Assembly (NCBI GenBank): GCA_046046245.1
Contig: JBJOKE010000011.1
Coordinates: forward strand, 50,919 to 114,918
Source of the DNA: Pseudomonadota bacterium
GTDB lineage: Bacteria > Pseudomonadota > Gammaproteobacteria > Burkholderiales > Burkholderiaceae_E
Direction of reading: 5' to 3'
Length of the DNA stretch: 64,000 bases
The notes under the pieces are model-generated. The model did no database searches, had not been told where the DNA came from, and saw only the letters and a program-made list of their open reading frames with translations. Shown here one piece after another: positions 9,414 through 17,495 of this stretch. The stretch's first letter is position 1; each line of letters opens with the position of its first letter. The position numbers and the translations under genes were made by a program.

Positions 9414-10331
9414 ATGCAGGACCTGTTGGCGGGGCGGGCGGCGATCGTCACGGGCGGCGCCCGCGGGATCGGGCTGGCGGTGGCTCAGACGCTGGGCCTG
9501 CTCGGCGCCCGCGTGCTGATCGTCGACAACGGCGCGGCGATCGACGGCGGCCCCGAGGACCCGGCGGTCACCGAGCTCGCCGCGATGCGCGTGCCGGGCG
9601 CCGTCGGCCTGTCGCTCGACGCGGGCGCCGAGGGCGCCGCCACCGAGGCCGTGTCGGCCGCGCTCGATGCGTTCGGGGCGGTCGACCTGGTCGTCAACAA
9701 CGCGGCGATCGAGGCCGACGCGCCGGTCGGCGACGGTGCGCGCGCGGCCTTCGAGCGAATGCTGCGGACCAACCTCGTCGCGCCCTGGGCGATGGCCGCA
9801 GCCGCGATCGGCCCGATGCGCGCACAGGCCCGCGCCGGCCGCAGGCCGGGGGCGATCGTCAACCTCGCCTCGGCGGTCGGTCTCTTCGGCCGCGCGGGCC
9901 GGGGCGGAGAAGCCGCGAGCAAGGCGGGGCTGGTCGGCCTGACCCGCACGCTCGCGCTCGAGCTGGCCGACGCGCGGATCGCCTGCAACGCGATCGTGCC
10001 GTTCGCGGGCACGCGAGCGGTACGCGCCGCGCCCGGTGCCGACGCCGCGCACGCGCGCTGGGCCGAGCGCACCGGCGCGCTGCCCGCCAGCCACGTCGCG
10101 AACCTCGTCGCCTTCCTCGCCGCGCCCCAGGCCGCCGGGATCAGCGGGCAGCTGCTCGGCGTGCGCGGGCTCGAGGTGTTCGCGTGGACGCAGGCGCGTC
10201 CCGCGGCCTCGTGTTTCCAGCCGCGCTCGTTCGACGCCGACGAGTTCGCGAGCGCGCTGGGCGCGCTGCGGCGAGACTTCGTCACGCTCGCCGATGACCT
10301 CGACGCCTTCGACGTCGACCCGGTCGCCTGA
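9414..10331 (+). CDS. SDR-fold protein with a substituted catalytic Tyr (atypical short-chain dehydrogenase paralogue)
   Basis: Track ORF 9414..10331. AGAGGA lies 6 nt upstream of the ATG. Rossmann motif AAIVTGGARGIG. It aligns colinearly with the in-window SDR at 40038, but reads GGEAASKAG where that one reads ANYAAAKLG, and NNAA instead of NNAG. Confidence 0.8.
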   Translation: MQDLLAGRAAIVTGGARGIGLAVAQTLGLLGARVLIVDNGAAIDGGPEDPAVTELAAMRVPGAVGLSLDAGAEGAATEAVSAALDAFGAVDLVVNNAAIEADAPVGDGARAAFERMLRTNLVAPWAMAAAAIGPMRAQARAGRRPGAIVNLASAVGLFGRAGRGGEAASKAGLVGLTRTLALELADARIACNAIVPFAGTRAVRAAPGADAAHARWAERTGALPASHVANLVAFLAAPQAAGISGQLLGVRGLEVFAWTQARPAASCFQPRSFDADEFASALGALRRDFVTLADDLDAFDVDPVA

Positions 10332-10472
10332 GCGCGCGGTGACGCGCGTCGGCCCACCGCGCGGCGGCGCGCCCGGCGGCCGACCGAACGCGCTGCAGAC
10401 GCCGATGGACGTGCGTCGACACCCCAGGGGAATCCCGCTACGCTGGCCCTTTGACGCCCGGAGTTCCTCCCG

Positions 10473-11722
<1,250 letters not shown>

Positions 11723-11726
<4 letters not shown>

Positions 11727-12961
11727 GCGGCGCGGGCGGCGTGCCGGCCGGCGCGGTCGGTCTGCTGTCGAGTGCCGCGGTGCGCGAGCGCTGCGGCCGC
11801 ATCCTCGAGGCCGCGCTCGCGGGCCGCACGCGCTGGTTCGCCGTCGAACCCGCCCGGCTCGACGACGCCGCCGGCTTCGTGGCCGAGGTCACGCGCCGTC
11901 GCTATCCGGACCTGCGCGTGCCGTACCACAGCCGCTGGCGCCACTTCGAGGCGGGTGGCCTCGACCGGGTGGCCGCGATGGAGGCGGCCGCGGGCGACGC
12001 GCTCGCCGATCCGGCCGAACGTGCGCGGACGCGGATCGACCTGGCGGTGGTCTCGGTGCTGCTCGATGCCGGCGCGGGGGCGGCCTGGTCCTTCGACGAC
12101 CGCGCGAGCGGGGCGGTGATGGGTCGCTCCGAGGGCCTGGGCGTCGCGAGTCTGCGGGCCTTCGAGGCGGGGCTGTTCTCGTCCGACCCGCGGCGGCCTT
12201 GGCGGGCCGACGCGGCCGCGCTGGCCCGGCTCGACGTGGCCTCGCTCGGTGCGGCCTTCCAGGTCTGCGCGACGAACCCGCTGGTCGGCCTGGACGGCCG
12301 CGTCGCGCTGCTGCGCCGGCTCGGCGAAGCCCTTGCCGCGCGACCCGACGCGTTCGGCGCCGACGGACGCCCCGGCGGGCTCTTCGACGCCCTGCGGCCC
12401 GGCGGCGAGCCCCGCGTCGCTGCGCACGCGCTGCTGGTGGCGCTGCTGCACACGCTCGGCGGCATCTGGCCGCAGGGGGCGCGGATCGGCGGCGTCGCGG
12501 TCGGCGACGCAGGGAGGCACGCGCTCGCGGGCGGCGACGGCGAGACTGCCGGCTGGGTGCCATTCCACAAGCTGTCGCAGTGGCTCTGCTATTCGCTGCT
12601 CGAGCCCTTCGAGGGCGCCGGCGTCGTCGTCGACGGCCTCGATGCACTGACCGGCCTCGCCGAATACCGCAATGGCGGCCTGCTGGTCGACACCGGCGTG
12701 CTGGTGCCGCGCGAGCCGGCGGCCTTCGCCGCCCCCGTGCCGCCGGGCGCCGAGCCGGTCGTCGAATGGCGCGCGCTCACCGTGGCCCTCGTCGATGCGC
12801 TCGCACCGAGGGTCCGCGCCCGCCTCGGCGCCGACGCCGCGTCGATGCCGCTCGCCGCGGTGCTCGAGGGCGGCACCTGGGCGGCCGGCCGCGAGCTCGC
12901 CGCGCGGCGACGCGGCGGCGAGCCGCCGTTCGCGATCGCCAGCGACGGCACCGTCTTCTGA
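11723..12961 (+). CDS. DUF1688-family protein, URC4/Urg3-like
   Basis: C-terminal 412 aa of track ORF 10451..12961. The GTG at 11723 overlaps the upstream stop (GTGA). Conserved-looking segments are [35 protein letters not shown] and [18 protein letters not shown]. Confidence 0.75.
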
Positions 12962-12992
12962 CCCCACCCACGGATCGAACCGGAGACTGACG

Positions 12993-13625
12993 ATGGACGC
13001 GGGCGTGCACGTGATCGAGCATCCGCTGGTGCAGCACAAGCTGACGCTGATGCGCCGCAAGGAGACCAGCACCAACAGCTTCCGGCGGCTGCTGTCGGAG
13101 CTGTCGATGCTTCTGGCCTACGAGGTCACCCGCGACATGCCGATGCACGAGGTCGAGATCGAGACGCCGCTCGAGACCATGCGCTCGCGGCTCATCGACG
13201 GCAAGAAGACCGTCTTCGTGTCGATCATGCGCGCGGGCGCCGGCATCCTCGACGGGATGCTGCAGGTGATCCCCGGCGCACGGATCGCGCACATCGGCCT
13301 GTACCGCGATCCGAAGACGATGGTCGCGGTCGAGTACTACTTCAAGGTGCCGGCCGACATGCACGACCGCGACGCGATCGTCGTCGACCCGATGCTGGCC
13401 ACCGGCAATTCGGCGGTGGCGGCGGTCGACCGGCTGAAGGAGACTCGGCCGCGGTCGATCCGCTTCGTCTGTCTGCTCGCCGCGCCCGAGGGACTGCGGC
13501 ACTTTCGCGCGGCCCACCCGGACGTCCCGGTCTACACCGCGGCGATCGATCGCCAGCTCGACGCACACGGCTACATCCTCCCCGGTCTGGGCGACGCGGG
13601 CGATCGCCTGTTCGGGACGAAGTAG
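12993..13625 (+). CDS. upp: Uracil phosphoribosyltransferase
   Basis: Frame of track ORF 12672..13625. ATG at 12993 follows GGAG. Motifs [66 protein letters not shown]. 210 aa. Confidence 0.95.
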
Positions 13626-13686
13626 CACCGGCGACCGGCGCAACGCCGTCGATCCCCGGCGCCCGCCGGACGCGGGCGTCGCAGAT

Positions 13687-13736
13687 CACGCTGCGCGGTC
13701 GGACACGCTGCGCGGTCTGACACGCTGCGCAGCCGG
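13687..13736. repeat. 17-bp tandem direct repeat, about 3 copies
   Basis: CACGCTGCGCGGTCGGA (13687-13703), CACGCTGCGCGGTCTGA (13704-13720), CACGCTGCGCAGCCGG (13721-13736). It lies in the convergent intergenic region between upp and the Prs paralogue. Confidence 0.85.
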
Positions 13737-13755
13737 CGGACGGGACGCGCGCCGT

Positions 13756-14676
13756 TCAGGCGAGGCCGTGCGCGCGCAGCCCGCAGGCGAGCAGCGGTGC
13801 GAGCGCGATGCGGTTCGTCGCGTGCGCGAGAGAGTCCGTGCTCCAGAGTCGCGCCACGCCTGCCGAGTGCAGCGCGTCGAGATCGGCGGCCGAACAGAGC
13901 GCGTGGGTGACCACCGCGTCGACGCGCGAGGCGCCCGCGCCTAGGCAGACCCGCGCCGCCTGTGCGAGGGTGCGCCCGCTCGACGCGATGTCGTCCACCA
14001 GCACCACCGGGCGACCCGCCAAGTCGGGGCTCCGCCCCGACGGCCCCCCTGCGGCGACCACGTCGACCTCGCGATCGCCTCGCCGCGTCTTCACGAACAC
14101 CGCATGCGGCCGGCCGGCTGCGGCGGCAACCGCGGCCGCCCACCGCGCGGACTCCTCGTCGGGCCCGACCACCACCGCATCGGCCGCCTCGCGTCCGACG
14201 AACGCGCCGATCGATTCGGCGGCGGTCAGCGCGATCGCGCGTGCGCCGCCGGTGACCGCCTCGTCGAGCCGCGAGATCCGGTGCAGGTGGGGGTCGACCG
14301 TGACGACCGCGTCGAACAGCCCGCCGAGGAACGCCCCGACGATCCGCTGGCTGACCGCCTCGCCGGGCCGGAACTCGAGATCCTGCCGCATGTAGCACAG
14401 GTAGGGCGCAACCAGCGTCAGCGTGGTCACGCCGTGCGAGCGTGCGGTCCGGCTCGCGAGCAGCAGCTCGACGAGTCGCGTGTCGGGCGAGCCCAGCGAC
14501 GCGTAGAGCAGCACGCGTGGCGGCAGCGGCACCGGCAGCCTCAGCAGCGATTCGCCGTCCGGGAAACGACGCGTCTCGATCGGCGCGCGCGGGATCGCGA
14601 GCGCTTCGGCGAGCCGCGCCGCGGGCTCGGCCTGGTCCGAGAAGTGCAGCAGGATCGGGGCGCTCGGTGTGTCCAT
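13756..14676 (-). CDS. Ribose-phosphate pyrophosphokinase (Prs)-family paralogue
   Basis: Track ORF 13756..14676, 306 aa. Motifs ETRRFPDGESLLRL, VAPYLCYMRQD, VTVDPHLHR and the PRPP loop VVLVDDIASSGRTL. It starts 12 nt downstream of the TP-family gene. Confidence 0.85.
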   Translation of the reverse strand: MDTPSAPILLHFSDQAEPAARLAEALAIPRAPIETRRFPDGESLLRLPVPLPPRVLLYASLGSPDTRLVELLLASRTARSHGVTTLTLVAPYLCYMRQDLEFRPGEAVSQRIVGAFLGGLFDAVVTVDPHLHRISRLDEAVTGGARAIALTAAESIGAFVGREAADAVVVGPDEESARWAAAVAAAAGRPHAVFVKTRRGDREVDVVAAGGPSGRSPDLAGRPVVLVDDIASSGRTLAQAARVCLGAGASRVDAVVTHALCSAADLDALHSAGVARLWSTDSLAHATNRIALAPLLACGLRAHGLA

Positions 14677-14688
14677 CCCGTCACGGCC

Positions 14689-16215
14689 TCAGGCGATCGC
14701 GATGCCGGGGTCGACCACGCAGCCGCGGCGCGCCAGCTCGAACTCGCCGGGCGTCTCGGCGTGCAGCCGGTAGAGCGGCTGGCCGGCACGTACCGTGTCG
14801 CCGAGCCGTACCTGCAGGTCGAGCCCCGCGCCCGGGCTGGCCGGCGCGCCGGCCTGCCGGGCGGCGCGCGCGAGTCGCAGGTGGTCGAACCCGATGACCC
14901 GGCCCGCGCGCGGCGCGCCGATCTCGGCGACGTGCCGGCCCGGCACGGGCGGTTGCGCGCGCCGCCCCTGGGCGTCGACGATCGCCGCCATCTTGGCCGC
15001 GGCCCGGCCCGACTCGAGGATGTCGCGCGCGAGCGACTCGCCATCGCCGCCGCGCACGTCGGGATCGAACTCGAGGATCCGGCCGGCGAGCCGGATCGAC
15101 TTCGCGCGCAGGTCGGCCGGGGCGTCGGGCGCGTTGCCGAGCACCGCCATCACGTCACGGGCCTCGAGCACCGGACCGATGCCGCGGCCGATCGGCTGCG
15201 TGCCGTCGGTCAGCGTGACCTCCACGTGCAGCCCCAGCGCGCGGCCGACATGCTCGAAGGTCTTGCGCAGTCGCTGCGCGGACGCGAGGTCGCGGACCTT
15301 GGCGCTCGGACCGACCGGGATGTCGAGCAGCAGGTGGGTCGACCCGGCGGCGAGCTTCTTCGACAGGATGGATGCGACCATCAGCCCCGGGGAGTCGAGC
15401 GCGAGCTGTCGCTCGACCGAGATCAGCAGGTCGTCGAGCGGCGCGAGCCGCTGCGTGCCGCCCCAGGCGATGCAGCCGCGTTCGCGCAGCACGATCTCGC
15501 GCAGCCGCGCCGGCTCGAGCTCGACCTCGGCGAGCACCTCCATCGTGTCGGCCGTCCCCGCGGGTGACGTGATCGCGCGGCTCGAGGTCTTCGGGATCAG
15601 CATCCCGTGAGCGGCGACGATCGGCACCACGACCATCGAGGTTCGGTTGCCGGGGATGCCGCCGATGCAGTGCTTGTCGGCGACCAGGGTCTCGTGCCAG
15701 TCGAGCCGCTCGCCGGTCTCGAGCATCGCGCGGGTCAGCGCCAGCACCTCGTCGCGCTCGAGGTCGTCGCGTCCGCAGGCGACGAGGAAGGCGGCGATCT
15801 CGCTGCGCGTGTAGCGGCGCGCCGCGATGTCGCCGGCGATCGCGCGCATCGCGGCGAGGTCGAGCGGCTCGCCCTGGAGCTTGCGGCGGACGATGTCGAG
15901 CGATGCGGGGCGGGGTGCGGGCCCGATGCTGACCGGCGTGCCGCGCGGCGCGCCGAGCAGCGCGAAGGCCTGCTCGGACAGGCCGAGCTCGTCGAGACCG
16001 ACGATCGACGGGTCCTCGACGACGTTGAGCACCGCCAGCATCGGCTCGACGTCGTCGGGCGCATCGGCGCGTCGGATCGCGACCTTCTGCGAGGCCCGCA
16101 GCGCGTCGATCCGGCATGCGGCACAGCCGCGCGCGAGGTAGGCGACGTTCTCGGCGTCGGTGTCGATCCGCACCTCGCGCAGGCGCAGGGACGCGACGTG
16201 CTCGGGAGCCCTCAT
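14689..16215 (-). CDS. Thymidine phosphorylase-family protein with N-terminal extension (AMP-phosphorylase-like architecture)
   Basis: C-terminal 508 aa of track ORF 14689..17298, starting at [12 protein letters not shown] (CAT at 16213-16215). Motifs [55 protein letters not shown], and a C-terminal alpha/beta domain. About 90 aa precede the glycosyltransferase core. Confidence 0.85.
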
Positions 16216-16274
16216 CCGGCGGATTGTAGCCGGGCCGTGTCGGCTCGCCCGTCGGAGCGAGACCGCGCCTCGGA

Positions 16275-17495
16275 TCAGCCCCGGCCGAGGGGGGTGGGGT
16301 GCCAGCCGACCGTCAGCAGCATGACGGCGAACCCGACGACGTAGGCGAGGGCGACGTGCCAGCCCGATCGCAGCCATGCGCCGACCGACCGCGCCTCGGG
16401 GAACTGGTTGGACAGCGCGACGCCCGCCGACGATCCGAACCAGATCATCGAGCCGCCGAAGCCCACCGCGTAGGCGAGCACGCCCCAGTCGTAGCCGCCC
16501 TGCGCGATGGCGAGCGCGGTCAGCGGGATGTTGTCGAACACCGCCGACACGACGCCCAGCCCGAAGGCCGTCAGCCATGAAGCGTCGGGCAGGCGCTCGA
16601 CCGGCATCATCGACGCGATCAGGACCAGCGACAGCAGGAAGACCGTGCCGCGGACCGCGTTCGGCAAGGCTGCCCAGTCGGGCCGGCGCAGCGGCGCCGC
16701 AACGAGGATCGCGACCCAGACCGCCGCGCCGATGAAGGGGAAACGGTCCGCGACCGCGGCGAAACGCGTGTTGACGACGACGTTGACCGTGACGGCGGCG
16801 ACGAGGATGAACGCGACGATCGCCGCTCGGCCCCAGTCGATCCTCGCGCTCGCCGCGCCGTCGCGGACGAGCGGCGAATGCCGGTGCTGCTGGCCCGACG
16901 CGACCCAGCCGACGATCGCCAGGGCGACGACCGCCGCCGAATACGCGTTGAGTACCGCCAGCGGCGACGCGCCGGCGATCCAGATCATCGTGGTCGTGGT
17001 GTCGCCCACCACGCTGCCCGAGCCGCCGGCGTTCGACGCCGCGACGATGCCCGCGAGGTAGCCGATGTGGACGCGGCCGCGGAACACCGTCGCGGCGATC
17101 GTGCCGCCGATGATCGCCGCCGCGATGTTGTCGAGGAAGCTCGAGATCACGAAGACCAGCACCAGGAGCCCGAAGGCGCCGGCGCGGCCATCGGGCAGCC
17201 AGCGCGGCAGCGCGGCCGGGATGCCGCTCTCCTCGAAGTGGCGCGACAGCAGCGCGAAGCCGAGCAGCAGGCAGAAGAGGTTCGCGACCGTCACCCACTC
17301 GTGGGCCAGGTGCGCGCCCAGGCCAGCGAGGCCGGCGCCCTCGGCGAAGCCGGAGAAGAGCACCTTGTAGAGCGACACCACGACCAGGCCTGCGACCGCG
17401 ACCCGCATCGTGTGATGGTGGAGCAGCGCGACGCCGGCAAGCACGGCGGCGAACAGGATGAACTCCGGCGGGATGCCGGCGATGTCGAAGCCCAT
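16275..17495 (-). CDS. ArsB/NhaD/CitMHS-superfamily permease (ion or anion transporter)
   Basis: C-terminal 406 aa of track ORF 16275..17753, from [19 protein letters not shown] (CAT at 17493-17495). About 11 TM segments. Motifs [14 protein letters not shown] and [14 protein letters not shown] are typical of this superfamily. Confidence 0.7.

Follow-up and report, generated by a model that had tools for sequence, protein, structure and literature searches.

The subject of this report is a two-gene operon on the minus strand of a 64,000-nucleotide stretch of DNA, called the window throughout, from a Pseudomonadota bacterium of the order Burkholderiales (GenBank assembly GCA_046046245.1, contig JBJOKE010000011.1, positions 50,919 to 114,918). 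Its first gene encodes a relative of thymidine phosphorylase (TP), the TP-like protein, and its second a paralog of ribose-phosphate pyrophosphokinase (Prs), the Prs-like protein. The two genes can be taken with near certainty to form one functional unit. The TP-like protein is, on sequence grounds, a member of a bacterial sister family of the archaeal adenosine monophosphate (AMP)/nucleoside monophosphate (NMP) phosphorylases and not a DeoA enzyme, and it probably cleaves NMPs with phosphate to give free bases and ribose-1,5-bisphosphate (R15P). The Prs-like protein may then consume R15P, and in one clade of the family the R15P-consuming enzyme PhnN takes the place of the Prs-like gene beside the TP-like gene.

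Profile hidden Markov models (HMMs) place the TP-like protein above the cutoffs of NF003338 (654.8 bits, cutoff 434) and TIGR02645 (555.1 bits, cutoff 434.6) and far below those of all the DeoA and Pdp models (208 bits with a cutoff of 269, 161 with 571, 119 with 559, and 197 with 409). This classification bears out the initial annotation, which had described the protein as the AMP phosphorylase type rather than DeoA. Its best match in the Protein Data Bank (PDB) is the T. kodakarensis AMP phosphorylase 4GA5 at an E-value of 1e-98, whereas true TPs are matched at about 1e-35, and its identity to haloarchaeal proteins annotated as AMP phosphorylases is 45-48%. The bacterial TP-like family is sister to the archaeal AMP phosphorylases in a neighbor-joining (NJ) tree.

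Relative to the DeoA models, the TP-like protein carries an N-terminal extension, which can be aligned to the N-domain of the AMP phosphorylase from T. kodakarensis. The initial annotation had noted this extension at about 90 amino acids; its presence holds, and its length comes to about 105 residues. The Pfam domains Glycos_trans_3N, Glycos_transf_3, and PYNP_C start at residue 107, and the HMMER alignment to 4GA5 begins at residue 61. A Foldseek search with an AlphaFold model returns 4GA5_A as the top match over the full length (511 columns, N-domain included), which is a coarse fold match. Within the extension, residues 10-100 are modeled with a predicted local distance difference test score (pLDDT) of 76-90 as a small beta-barrel resembling the designed double-psi beta-barrel 7DI0, with a template modeling (TM) score of 0.77 on the target.

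The archaeal AMP/NMP phosphorylase (TK0352 in PMC9700705; structures 4GA4, 4GA5, and 4GA6; HMM TIGR03327) is an enzyme of the pentose bisphosphate pathway and the closest known relative of the TP-like protein in both sequence and fold. The same domains follow one another in both, from a beta-rich one at the N-terminus through a helical bundle and an alpha/beta domain to the C-terminal domain, and both contain a PGN[KR]T motif. The T. kodakarensis enzyme phosphorolyses AMP, CMP, UMP, and GMP to the base and R15P (PMC8376864, PMC9700705), and among haloarchaea NMP phosphorylase is confined to species with Rubisco (PMC9700705). Unlike its archaeal relatives, the TP-like protein is bacterial, shows no linkage to R15P isomerase or RuBisCO in the neighborhoods covered, and is partnered by a Prs-like protein or a fused PhnN domain. 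No match to RuBisCO or R15P isomerase is found in a six-frame motif scan of the window or in Pfam calls covering about 10 kb on each side, and neither gene is among the conserved neighbors of the 80 TP-like loci surveyed below. Given the partner, R15P probably goes to 5-phosphoribosyl-1-pyrophosphate (PRPP) or ribose-5-phosphate (R5P) and not to ribulose-1,5-bisphosphate (RuBP).

DeoA and Pdp have the NP-II/glycosyltransferase-3 fold and the same Pfam domains as the TP-like protein, but the latter has an extra N-terminal domain, a different active-site motif, and no deo-operon context. One active-site stretch is common to the TP-like protein and the T. kodakarensis enzyme, where DeoA has PMISGRGLGHTGGTL, and the DeoA motif SGRGLGHTGGT is replaced. 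Public databases name the TP-like protein by similarity, and TIGR02645 has carried the label ‘putative’ for a long time. Such names (‘thymidine phosphorylase family protein’, ‘ribose-phosphate pyrophosphokinase’) and the many copies on conjugative plasmids would suit an ordinary thymidine or pyrimidine-nucleoside phosphorylase next to a redundant prs, or else an anti-phage system that depletes nucleotides. Both are highly improbable. The sub-cutoff DeoA and Pdp scores, the replaced motif, and the missing deo context argue against the former; as for the latter, no component has a PADLOC match, PHROG matches are weak, and only one full-length match occurs among 50,697 phage records. Anti-phage defense or a phage origin is accordingly rejected. 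The single phage record, MT836048.1:5357-6799, encodes a full-length TP-like protein of 47% identity on an unannotated 13.5-kb ‘Bacteriophage sp.’ contig from human feces that may be a mis-binned plasmid or chromosomal fragment.

The Prs-like protein consists of the Pribosyltran_N and Pribosyltran domains only and is 100% identical to a protein from a metagenome-assembled genome (MAG) named ‘hypothetical protein RJA99_820 [Pseudomonadota bacterium]’. HMM classification confirms the initial assignment as a Prs paralog and places it in the class-III-like subfamily NF005537 (332.7 bits, cutoff 322). It also passes the broad model TIGR01251 (151.8 bits, cutoff 113) and falls below the archaeal class III model NF002095, the second in rank (164 bits, cutoff 296), and the class I model NF002320 (93.7 bits, cutoff 297). 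Its nearest solved structures are the archaeal class III PRPP synthases 1U9Y (M. jannaschii) and 4TWB (S. solfataricus), which resemble it in length (about 290-306 amino acids) and in R5P-loop Ser224, K194, R196, H131, and D170. It differs from them in having its own signature, Glu172, no conserved R/K99, and a sub-cutoff score, and in always being an accessory, operon-bound copy.

Residue conservation in the Prs-like family was assessed by aligning 75 members with the E. coli PRPP synthase (PRPS) and two class III enzymes, with E. coli numbering and the published ligand contacts of the E. coli enzyme as reference (PMC9232217). The adenine-contacting residues F35, D37, and E39 are invariant in 75 of 75 members, as are R96, Q97, D98, H131, D170, K194, R196, D220, D221, and T228. 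Almost certainly, the Prs-like protein is catalytically active and binds both an adenine nucleotide and a substrate of the 5-phosphoribosyl type. The pyrophosphate (PPi) loop, however, reads PDxES, with Glu172 in every member at the position where all bona fide Prs enzymes have Gly172 (PDxGG or PDxGA). S173 is a further invariant change, and His133 and Arg134 are invariant additions beside His131. Position 99 varies within the family (I, K, T, M, F, or A, and Leu in the window protein); in the E. coli enzyme, it is an arginine that forms a salt bridge with the beta-phosphate of the nucleotide. All clades share the signature YMRQD, DPHLHR, GPDxESxxW, and KxRxGD, and it extends to the divergent plasmid operons and to the stand-alone copy in Azospirillum. 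The remodeling is concentrated where the transferred phosphates sit, which is compatible with, but no proof of, an altered phosphoryl-transfer reaction.

A rival to be weighed seriously, though rather unlikely, is that only the first protein departs from its annotated function. In that case, the TP-like protein would be an NMP phosphorylase, the Prs-like protein a second conventional class-III-like PRPP synthase acting on R5P, and R15P would be handled by unlinked enzymes; co-expression would serve the re-salvage of released bases or a raised PRPP supply under stress. The invariant catalytic and ligand residues, the score above the TIGR01251 cutoff, the active class III enzymes as nearest structures, and the database names, every one of which is ribose-phosphate diphosphokinase, are what such an enzyme would be expected to show. 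These names are given by similarity only, however, and the protein scores below the class I and class III equivalog cutoffs. A conventional synthase also leaves unexplained the near-obligatory tie to the phosphorylase and the absence of the Prs-like gene beside PhnN fusions (76 of 80 loci and 0 of 8, as detailed below), and it does not account for the G172E, S173, and H133 changes or the loss of R99 at the ATP-phosphate site.

Conservation of the operon was surveyed with one genome per species, which found a TP-like gene, at 57-86% identity, in 80 loci. The Prs-like gene lies directly downstream of the TP-like gene on the same strand in 75 of these, and a 76th is cut by a contig end. This answers the co-occurrence check proposed in the initial annotation, with the pair adjacent in 76 of 80 species-level loci. 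Spacing between the two genes in these 76 other loci has a median of about 42 nucleotides. De novo clustering of neighboring open reading frames (ORFs) across the 80 loci finds only the pair conserved, while the flanks vary, and the cassette in the window is the bare two-gene form. The sole other recurrent neighbor, absent from the window, is a DUF1614 membrane protein of about 220 amino acids; in 16 of 80 loci (e.g., L002:6565-7227), its gene comes immediately after the Prs-like gene in the same orientation. Hosts in this closest chromosomal clade (L001-L080) are mostly methanotrophs, nitrifiers, and sulfur or iron oxidizers, including Methylococcus, Methylobacter, Nitrosomonas, Chromatiaceae, Thiohalo-genera, and Zetaproteobacteria; this may have a biological cause or may stem solely from the closest relatives having been sampled. 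Many hosts of this type carry RuBisCO.

A tblastn search of plasmids identified a 597-residue Cupriavidus protein that is annotated as PhnN and ends in the TP-like catalytic domain, which makes up its last 400 residues. HMMs recover both parts of a true fusion: TIGR02322 (PhnN) covers residues 5-180 with 180 bits (cutoff 156), and NF003338 scores 590 bits. The best 120 clusters are all PhnN::TP-like fusions of 587-718 amino acids, from Cupriavidus, Caballeronia, Paraburkholderia, Variovorax, Pseudomonas, Herbaspirillum, Bosea, and Inquilinus. They form one clade nested inside the bacterial TP-like family in the NJ tree. Partner occurrence is complementary: a Prs-like neighbor is present in 0 of 8 fusion loci versus 76 of 80 unfused loci, and PhnN is present in 0 of 80 unfused loci (Fisher p 8e-9 for the Prs-like contrast, a value that overstates independence).

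PhnN converts R15P to PRPP (PMC9700705). Since PhnN consumes R15P and the characterized relative of the TP-like protein makes it, the fusion supports phosphorolysis followed by PRPP formation. E. coli PhnN is proposed as a functional analog of the Prs-like protein, with which it has in common the same partner position and complementary occurrence. The two are not homologous, as PhnN has a guanylate-kinase-like P-loop fold and the Prs-like protein a two-domain phosphoribosyltransferase fold, and their equivalence is one of proposed function. The initial annotation had suggested that the pair phosphorolyses a nucleoside monophosphate or a ribosyl intermediate and regenerates PRPP, and the fusion lends support to that part of its hypothesis; the accompanying proposal, that the ribose moiety serves uracil breakdown, fares differently, as described below.

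A bona fide nadC gene, at 313-327 bits against a cutoff of 198, lies directly upstream in 8 of 8 fusion loci. The resulting nadC-phnN::TP-like operon occurs in Beta-, Gamma-, and Alphaproteobacteria (L085:3708-7293, L087, L089-L094), often near MarR, TctC/porin, or NMT1-type ABC transporter genes, and these loci lie outside the window. No paper on this operon was found. Its composition suggests a PRPP-cycling route in which quinolinate and PRPP would give nicotinate mononucleotide (NaMN), CO2, and PPi; NaMN and phosphate would give nicotinate and R15P; and R15P and ATP would restore PRPP with formation of ADP.

A further reading would make the TP-like protein a PRPP-dependent phosphoribosyltransferase with TrpD-like chemistry, fed with PRPP by either PhnN or the Prs-like protein. 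The annotations of these two partners both point to PRPP formation, TrpD is a fold homolog, and another PRPP consumer, NadC, stands beside the fusions. TrpD is nevertheless only a distant match (E about 1e-8 in sequence and 1e-4 in fold, versus 1e-98 to AMP phosphorylase), and the phosphate- and ribose-binding motifs are those of AMP phosphorylase. Moreover, PhnN fused to a PRPP consumer would have nothing to supply it with R15P, whereas a fusion to a producer of R15P needs no further explanation. TrpD-like chemistry is accordingly regarded as improbable.

In the favored mechanism, the TP-like protein would act as an NMP phosphorylase, converting an NMP and phosphate to a free base and R15P, as homology and the gene fusion indicate; this first step, taken alone, is considered likely. 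The second step is less certain. The Prs-like protein would consume R15P, most likely with ATP to give PRPP and ADP, by analogy with PhnN. Alternatively, R15P and AMP or ADP could give R5P and ADP or ATP in a mono-phosphoryl reverse Prs reaction, which would fit the loss of the terminal-phosphate site equally well. The net effect would be a salvage shunt from nucleotides to free bases and activated ribose phosphate that skips the nucleoside, ribose-1-phosphate, and R5P steps. The arguments for and against this two-step scheme as a whole are judged to be in balance.

Several observations weigh against the scheme. The TP-like protein scores under the cutoff of the AMP phosphorylase equivalog TIGR03327 (EC 2.4.2.57; 453.6 bits, cutoff 535), and its AlphaFold model, built from a shallow alignment, has a pLDDT of 63 with a low-confidence catalytic core. 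Substrate and product of the bacterial TP-like family are assigned by homology. The TP-like gene is solitary in 4 of 80 loci, where no replacement partner is seen, and in Azospirillum the TP-like gene lies with a metallo-beta-lactamase (MBL) gene while the Prs-like gene is on another replicon. Because the fusions are monophyletic, gene fusion and absence of the Prs-like gene may reflect a single event, so that the Fisher p value is overstated. The fused domain has the motif PGSRIT where the TP-like protein has PGNRTS, and together with the NadC partner this means that its substrate may differ. On the Prs-like side, the full catalytic set and the adenine-binding flag region would fit the ordinary reaction of R5P and ATP to PRPP and AMP, and for R15P to receive a phosphoryl group on its 1-phosphate, the substrate geometry would have to differ from that of the known Prs reaction.

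Full-text literature searches turned up no paper that characterizes either the bacterial pair or the PhnN fusion, in agreement with the initial annotation, which knew of no described function for the pair. The unit is possibly a bacterial form of the archaeal NMP shunt that is directed to PRPP, and its Prs-fold protein may have a new activity. A broader picture, comprising an undescribed shunt in thousands of bacteria, R15P as a regular bacterial metabolite, a Prs fold with a second chemistry on R15P, and a sister nadC-phnN operon for PRPP cycling, is advanced tentatively, with somewhat less than even confidence. If the reading of the pair as a nucleotide shunt is correct, the pair is misnamed in thousands of proteobacterial genomes and plasmids, and bacteria have a counterpart of the NMP shunt that ends in PRPP or R5P and not in RuBisCO. 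It would add a route of nucleotide and RNA turnover, a bacterial source of R15P outside phosphonate catabolism, and a new activity in the well-studied PRPP-synthase fold. A possible physiological analog is the E. coli AMP nucleosidase Amn, which removes the base from AMP and is thought to adjust adenylate pools; it is hydrolytic, yields R5P, and has an unrelated fold.

In a divergent, mostly plasmid-borne clade of 44-54% identity, the pair is preceded by a metallo-beta-lactamase gene of the beta-CASP/RMMBL RNase type. A 4-nucleotide overlap of stop and start codons joins the RNase gene to the pair in Ralstonia, Paracoccus, Legionella, and Sphingobium, indicative of translational coupling, and the TP-like and Prs-like genes themselves overlap by 4 nucleotides in plasmid-borne operons. 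The beta-CASP gene follows the pair in another locus (L084) and is also part of the operon in Bradyrhizobium. Within the window’s own clade, a beta-CASP nuclease is nearby in 5 of 80 loci, and none is present in the window. Where the nuclease is present, the NMPs probably come from RNA, and the shunt would be RNA-fed in these lineages. Legionella also has a class I PRPS (PDB 6NFE), and the plasmid-borne Prs-like copies must, it is inferred, be accessory to a housekeeping prs.

On plasmids, the beta-CASP/TP-like/Prs-like operon lies in recurring accessory islands (L086, L096, L097, L098, and L095), with neighbors that include copper P-type ATPases, DUF2933, isoprenylcysteine carboxyl methyltransferase, oleate hydratase, cyclopropane-fatty-acid synthase, and phosphoketolase. 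Homologs of oleate hydratase and phosphoketolase are among the FixK2 targets listed for Bradyrhizobium. In B. diazoefficiens, the bll3117-bll3116-bll3115 genes (TP-like, Prs, and MBL) are induced under microoxia and have a FixK2 box at -74 (PMC6515984, PMC9104804), and the pathway may thus matter for persistence and symbiosis. General low-oxygen control by FNR/FixK is rejected: the lead comes from Bradyrhizobium alone, a TTGA-N6-TCAA box is found upstream in 4 of 85 loci versus a background of 0.8%, and no FNR/FixK box is near the unit in the window.

In the window, the pair converges on a separate plus-strand unit that includes genes of URC-type pyrimidine catabolism and upp (Table 1). An ORF check reproduces the three minus-strand genes, the gaps between them, and the distance to the upp stop codon as first described, and family matches do the same for the URC1-like, DUF1688, and upp genes. 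The protein motifs quoted in the initial annotation are likewise found, VVLVDDIASSGRT included. A contig of the same organism (L183), on which genes were called independently, gives identical gene lengths.

Table 1. Features of the TP-like/Prs-like locus and the convergent URC/upp unit (window coordinates).
Feature	Positions	Strand	Remarks
Permease, 406 aa	16275-17495	minus	Confirmed ORF; upstream of the pair, same orientation
Spacer permease/TP-like, 59 nt	16216-16274		
TP-like gene, 508 aa	14689-16215	minus	NF003338/TIGR02645 family; first gene of the conserved pair
Spacer TP-like stop/Prs-like start, 12 nt	14677-14688		Operon junction
Prs-like gene, 306 aa	13756-14676	minus	NF005537 subfamily; second gene of the conserved pair
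Convergent spacer upp stop/Prs-like stop, 130 nt	13626-13755		
SDR-URC1-DUF1688-upp	9414-13625	plus	Neighboring separate unit; converges on the pair
SDR	9414-10331	plus	Family match
URC1-like GTP cyclohydrolase II	10473-11726	plus	Family match
DUF1688/URC4-like	11723-12961	plus	Family match
upp	12993-13625	plus	Family match

The initial annotation had grouped the pair with the adjacent permease and proposed that the pair serves uracil catabolism by recycling ribose phosphate to PRPP for Upp, URC1, and URC4. The tail-to-tail adjacency to upp is conserved in a narrow lineage, and Upp consumes PRPP, both of which speak for the proposal. Two reciprocal neighborhood surveys nevertheless tell against the coupling, which is rejected, and the proposal retains scarcely any probability. 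URC1, DUF1688, and upp are near the TP-like gene in 1 of 80 loci, that of an 86%-identical relative (L077), and in 0 of 79 beyond it. The reciprocal survey covered 80 metagenomic URC1 loci of 67-82% identity, in which URC1 is followed by DUF1688 in 63 cases and by upp in 48 (counts limited by contig ends); neither a TP-like nor a Prs-like gene is present in the 30 loci that were evaluable with at least 5 kb downstream. The pair thus shows no enriched linkage to URC/upp genes in other genomes, an outcome that the initial annotation had itself named as refuting the link. The two units are also convergent and do not form one operon, and the permease is missing in close relatives.

Tail-to-tail adjacency of the pair and upp is found in the window, the same-organism contig, and four relatives (L077, L081, L082, and L083), all of one narrow lineage with TP-like identity of at least 83%. 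In two of these (L081 and L083, 83-87% identity), a cation-efflux gene, the TP-like gene, and the Prs-like gene are followed by upp, DUF1688, URC1, and the short-chain dehydrogenase/reductase (SDR) gene on the opposite strand, with the SDR kept beside the URC genes. The position of the pair beside upp and the URC genes is inherited synteny of one narrow Burkholderiales lineage and not functional coupling, and the record for the window is corrected in that the pair is not to be read as part of the URC uracil pathway.

The permease cannot be retained as part of the unit either. No permease lies between the efflux gene and the TP-like gene in L081 and L083, and it is absent from all 80 other TP-like loci. 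Because these relatives have the same gene order without it, the permease is a recent insertion private to the window organism.

Consensus scans find no promoter-like or terminator-like site in the permease/TP-like spacer and no intrinsic-terminator-like site or hairpin in the upp/Prs-like spacer, and an Rfam scan gives nothing near a gathering score at the unit, with no riboswitch or known RNA element. The upp/Prs-like spacer contains, at 13687-13730, a 17-nucleotide tandem unit (CACGCTGCGCGGTCGGA) in 2.6 copies of 96% identity. Within the co-oriented SDR-URC1-DUF1688-upp cluster, URC1 and DUF1688 overlap by 4 nucleotides. The permease itself has no Pfam match, no PDB match, and no plasmid match; it matches NhaD weakly (58.7 bits, cutoff 577), can be placed only loosely, as a distant member of the ion-transporter superfamily, and belongs to a family in which CitMHS matches occur in 3 of 13 members. 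This family, which lacks a dedicated Pfam model and a solved structure, counts 417 representatives at E ≤ 1e-30, and NxGG, GDTTTTM, and FDNIPLT-like motifs are conserved in it.

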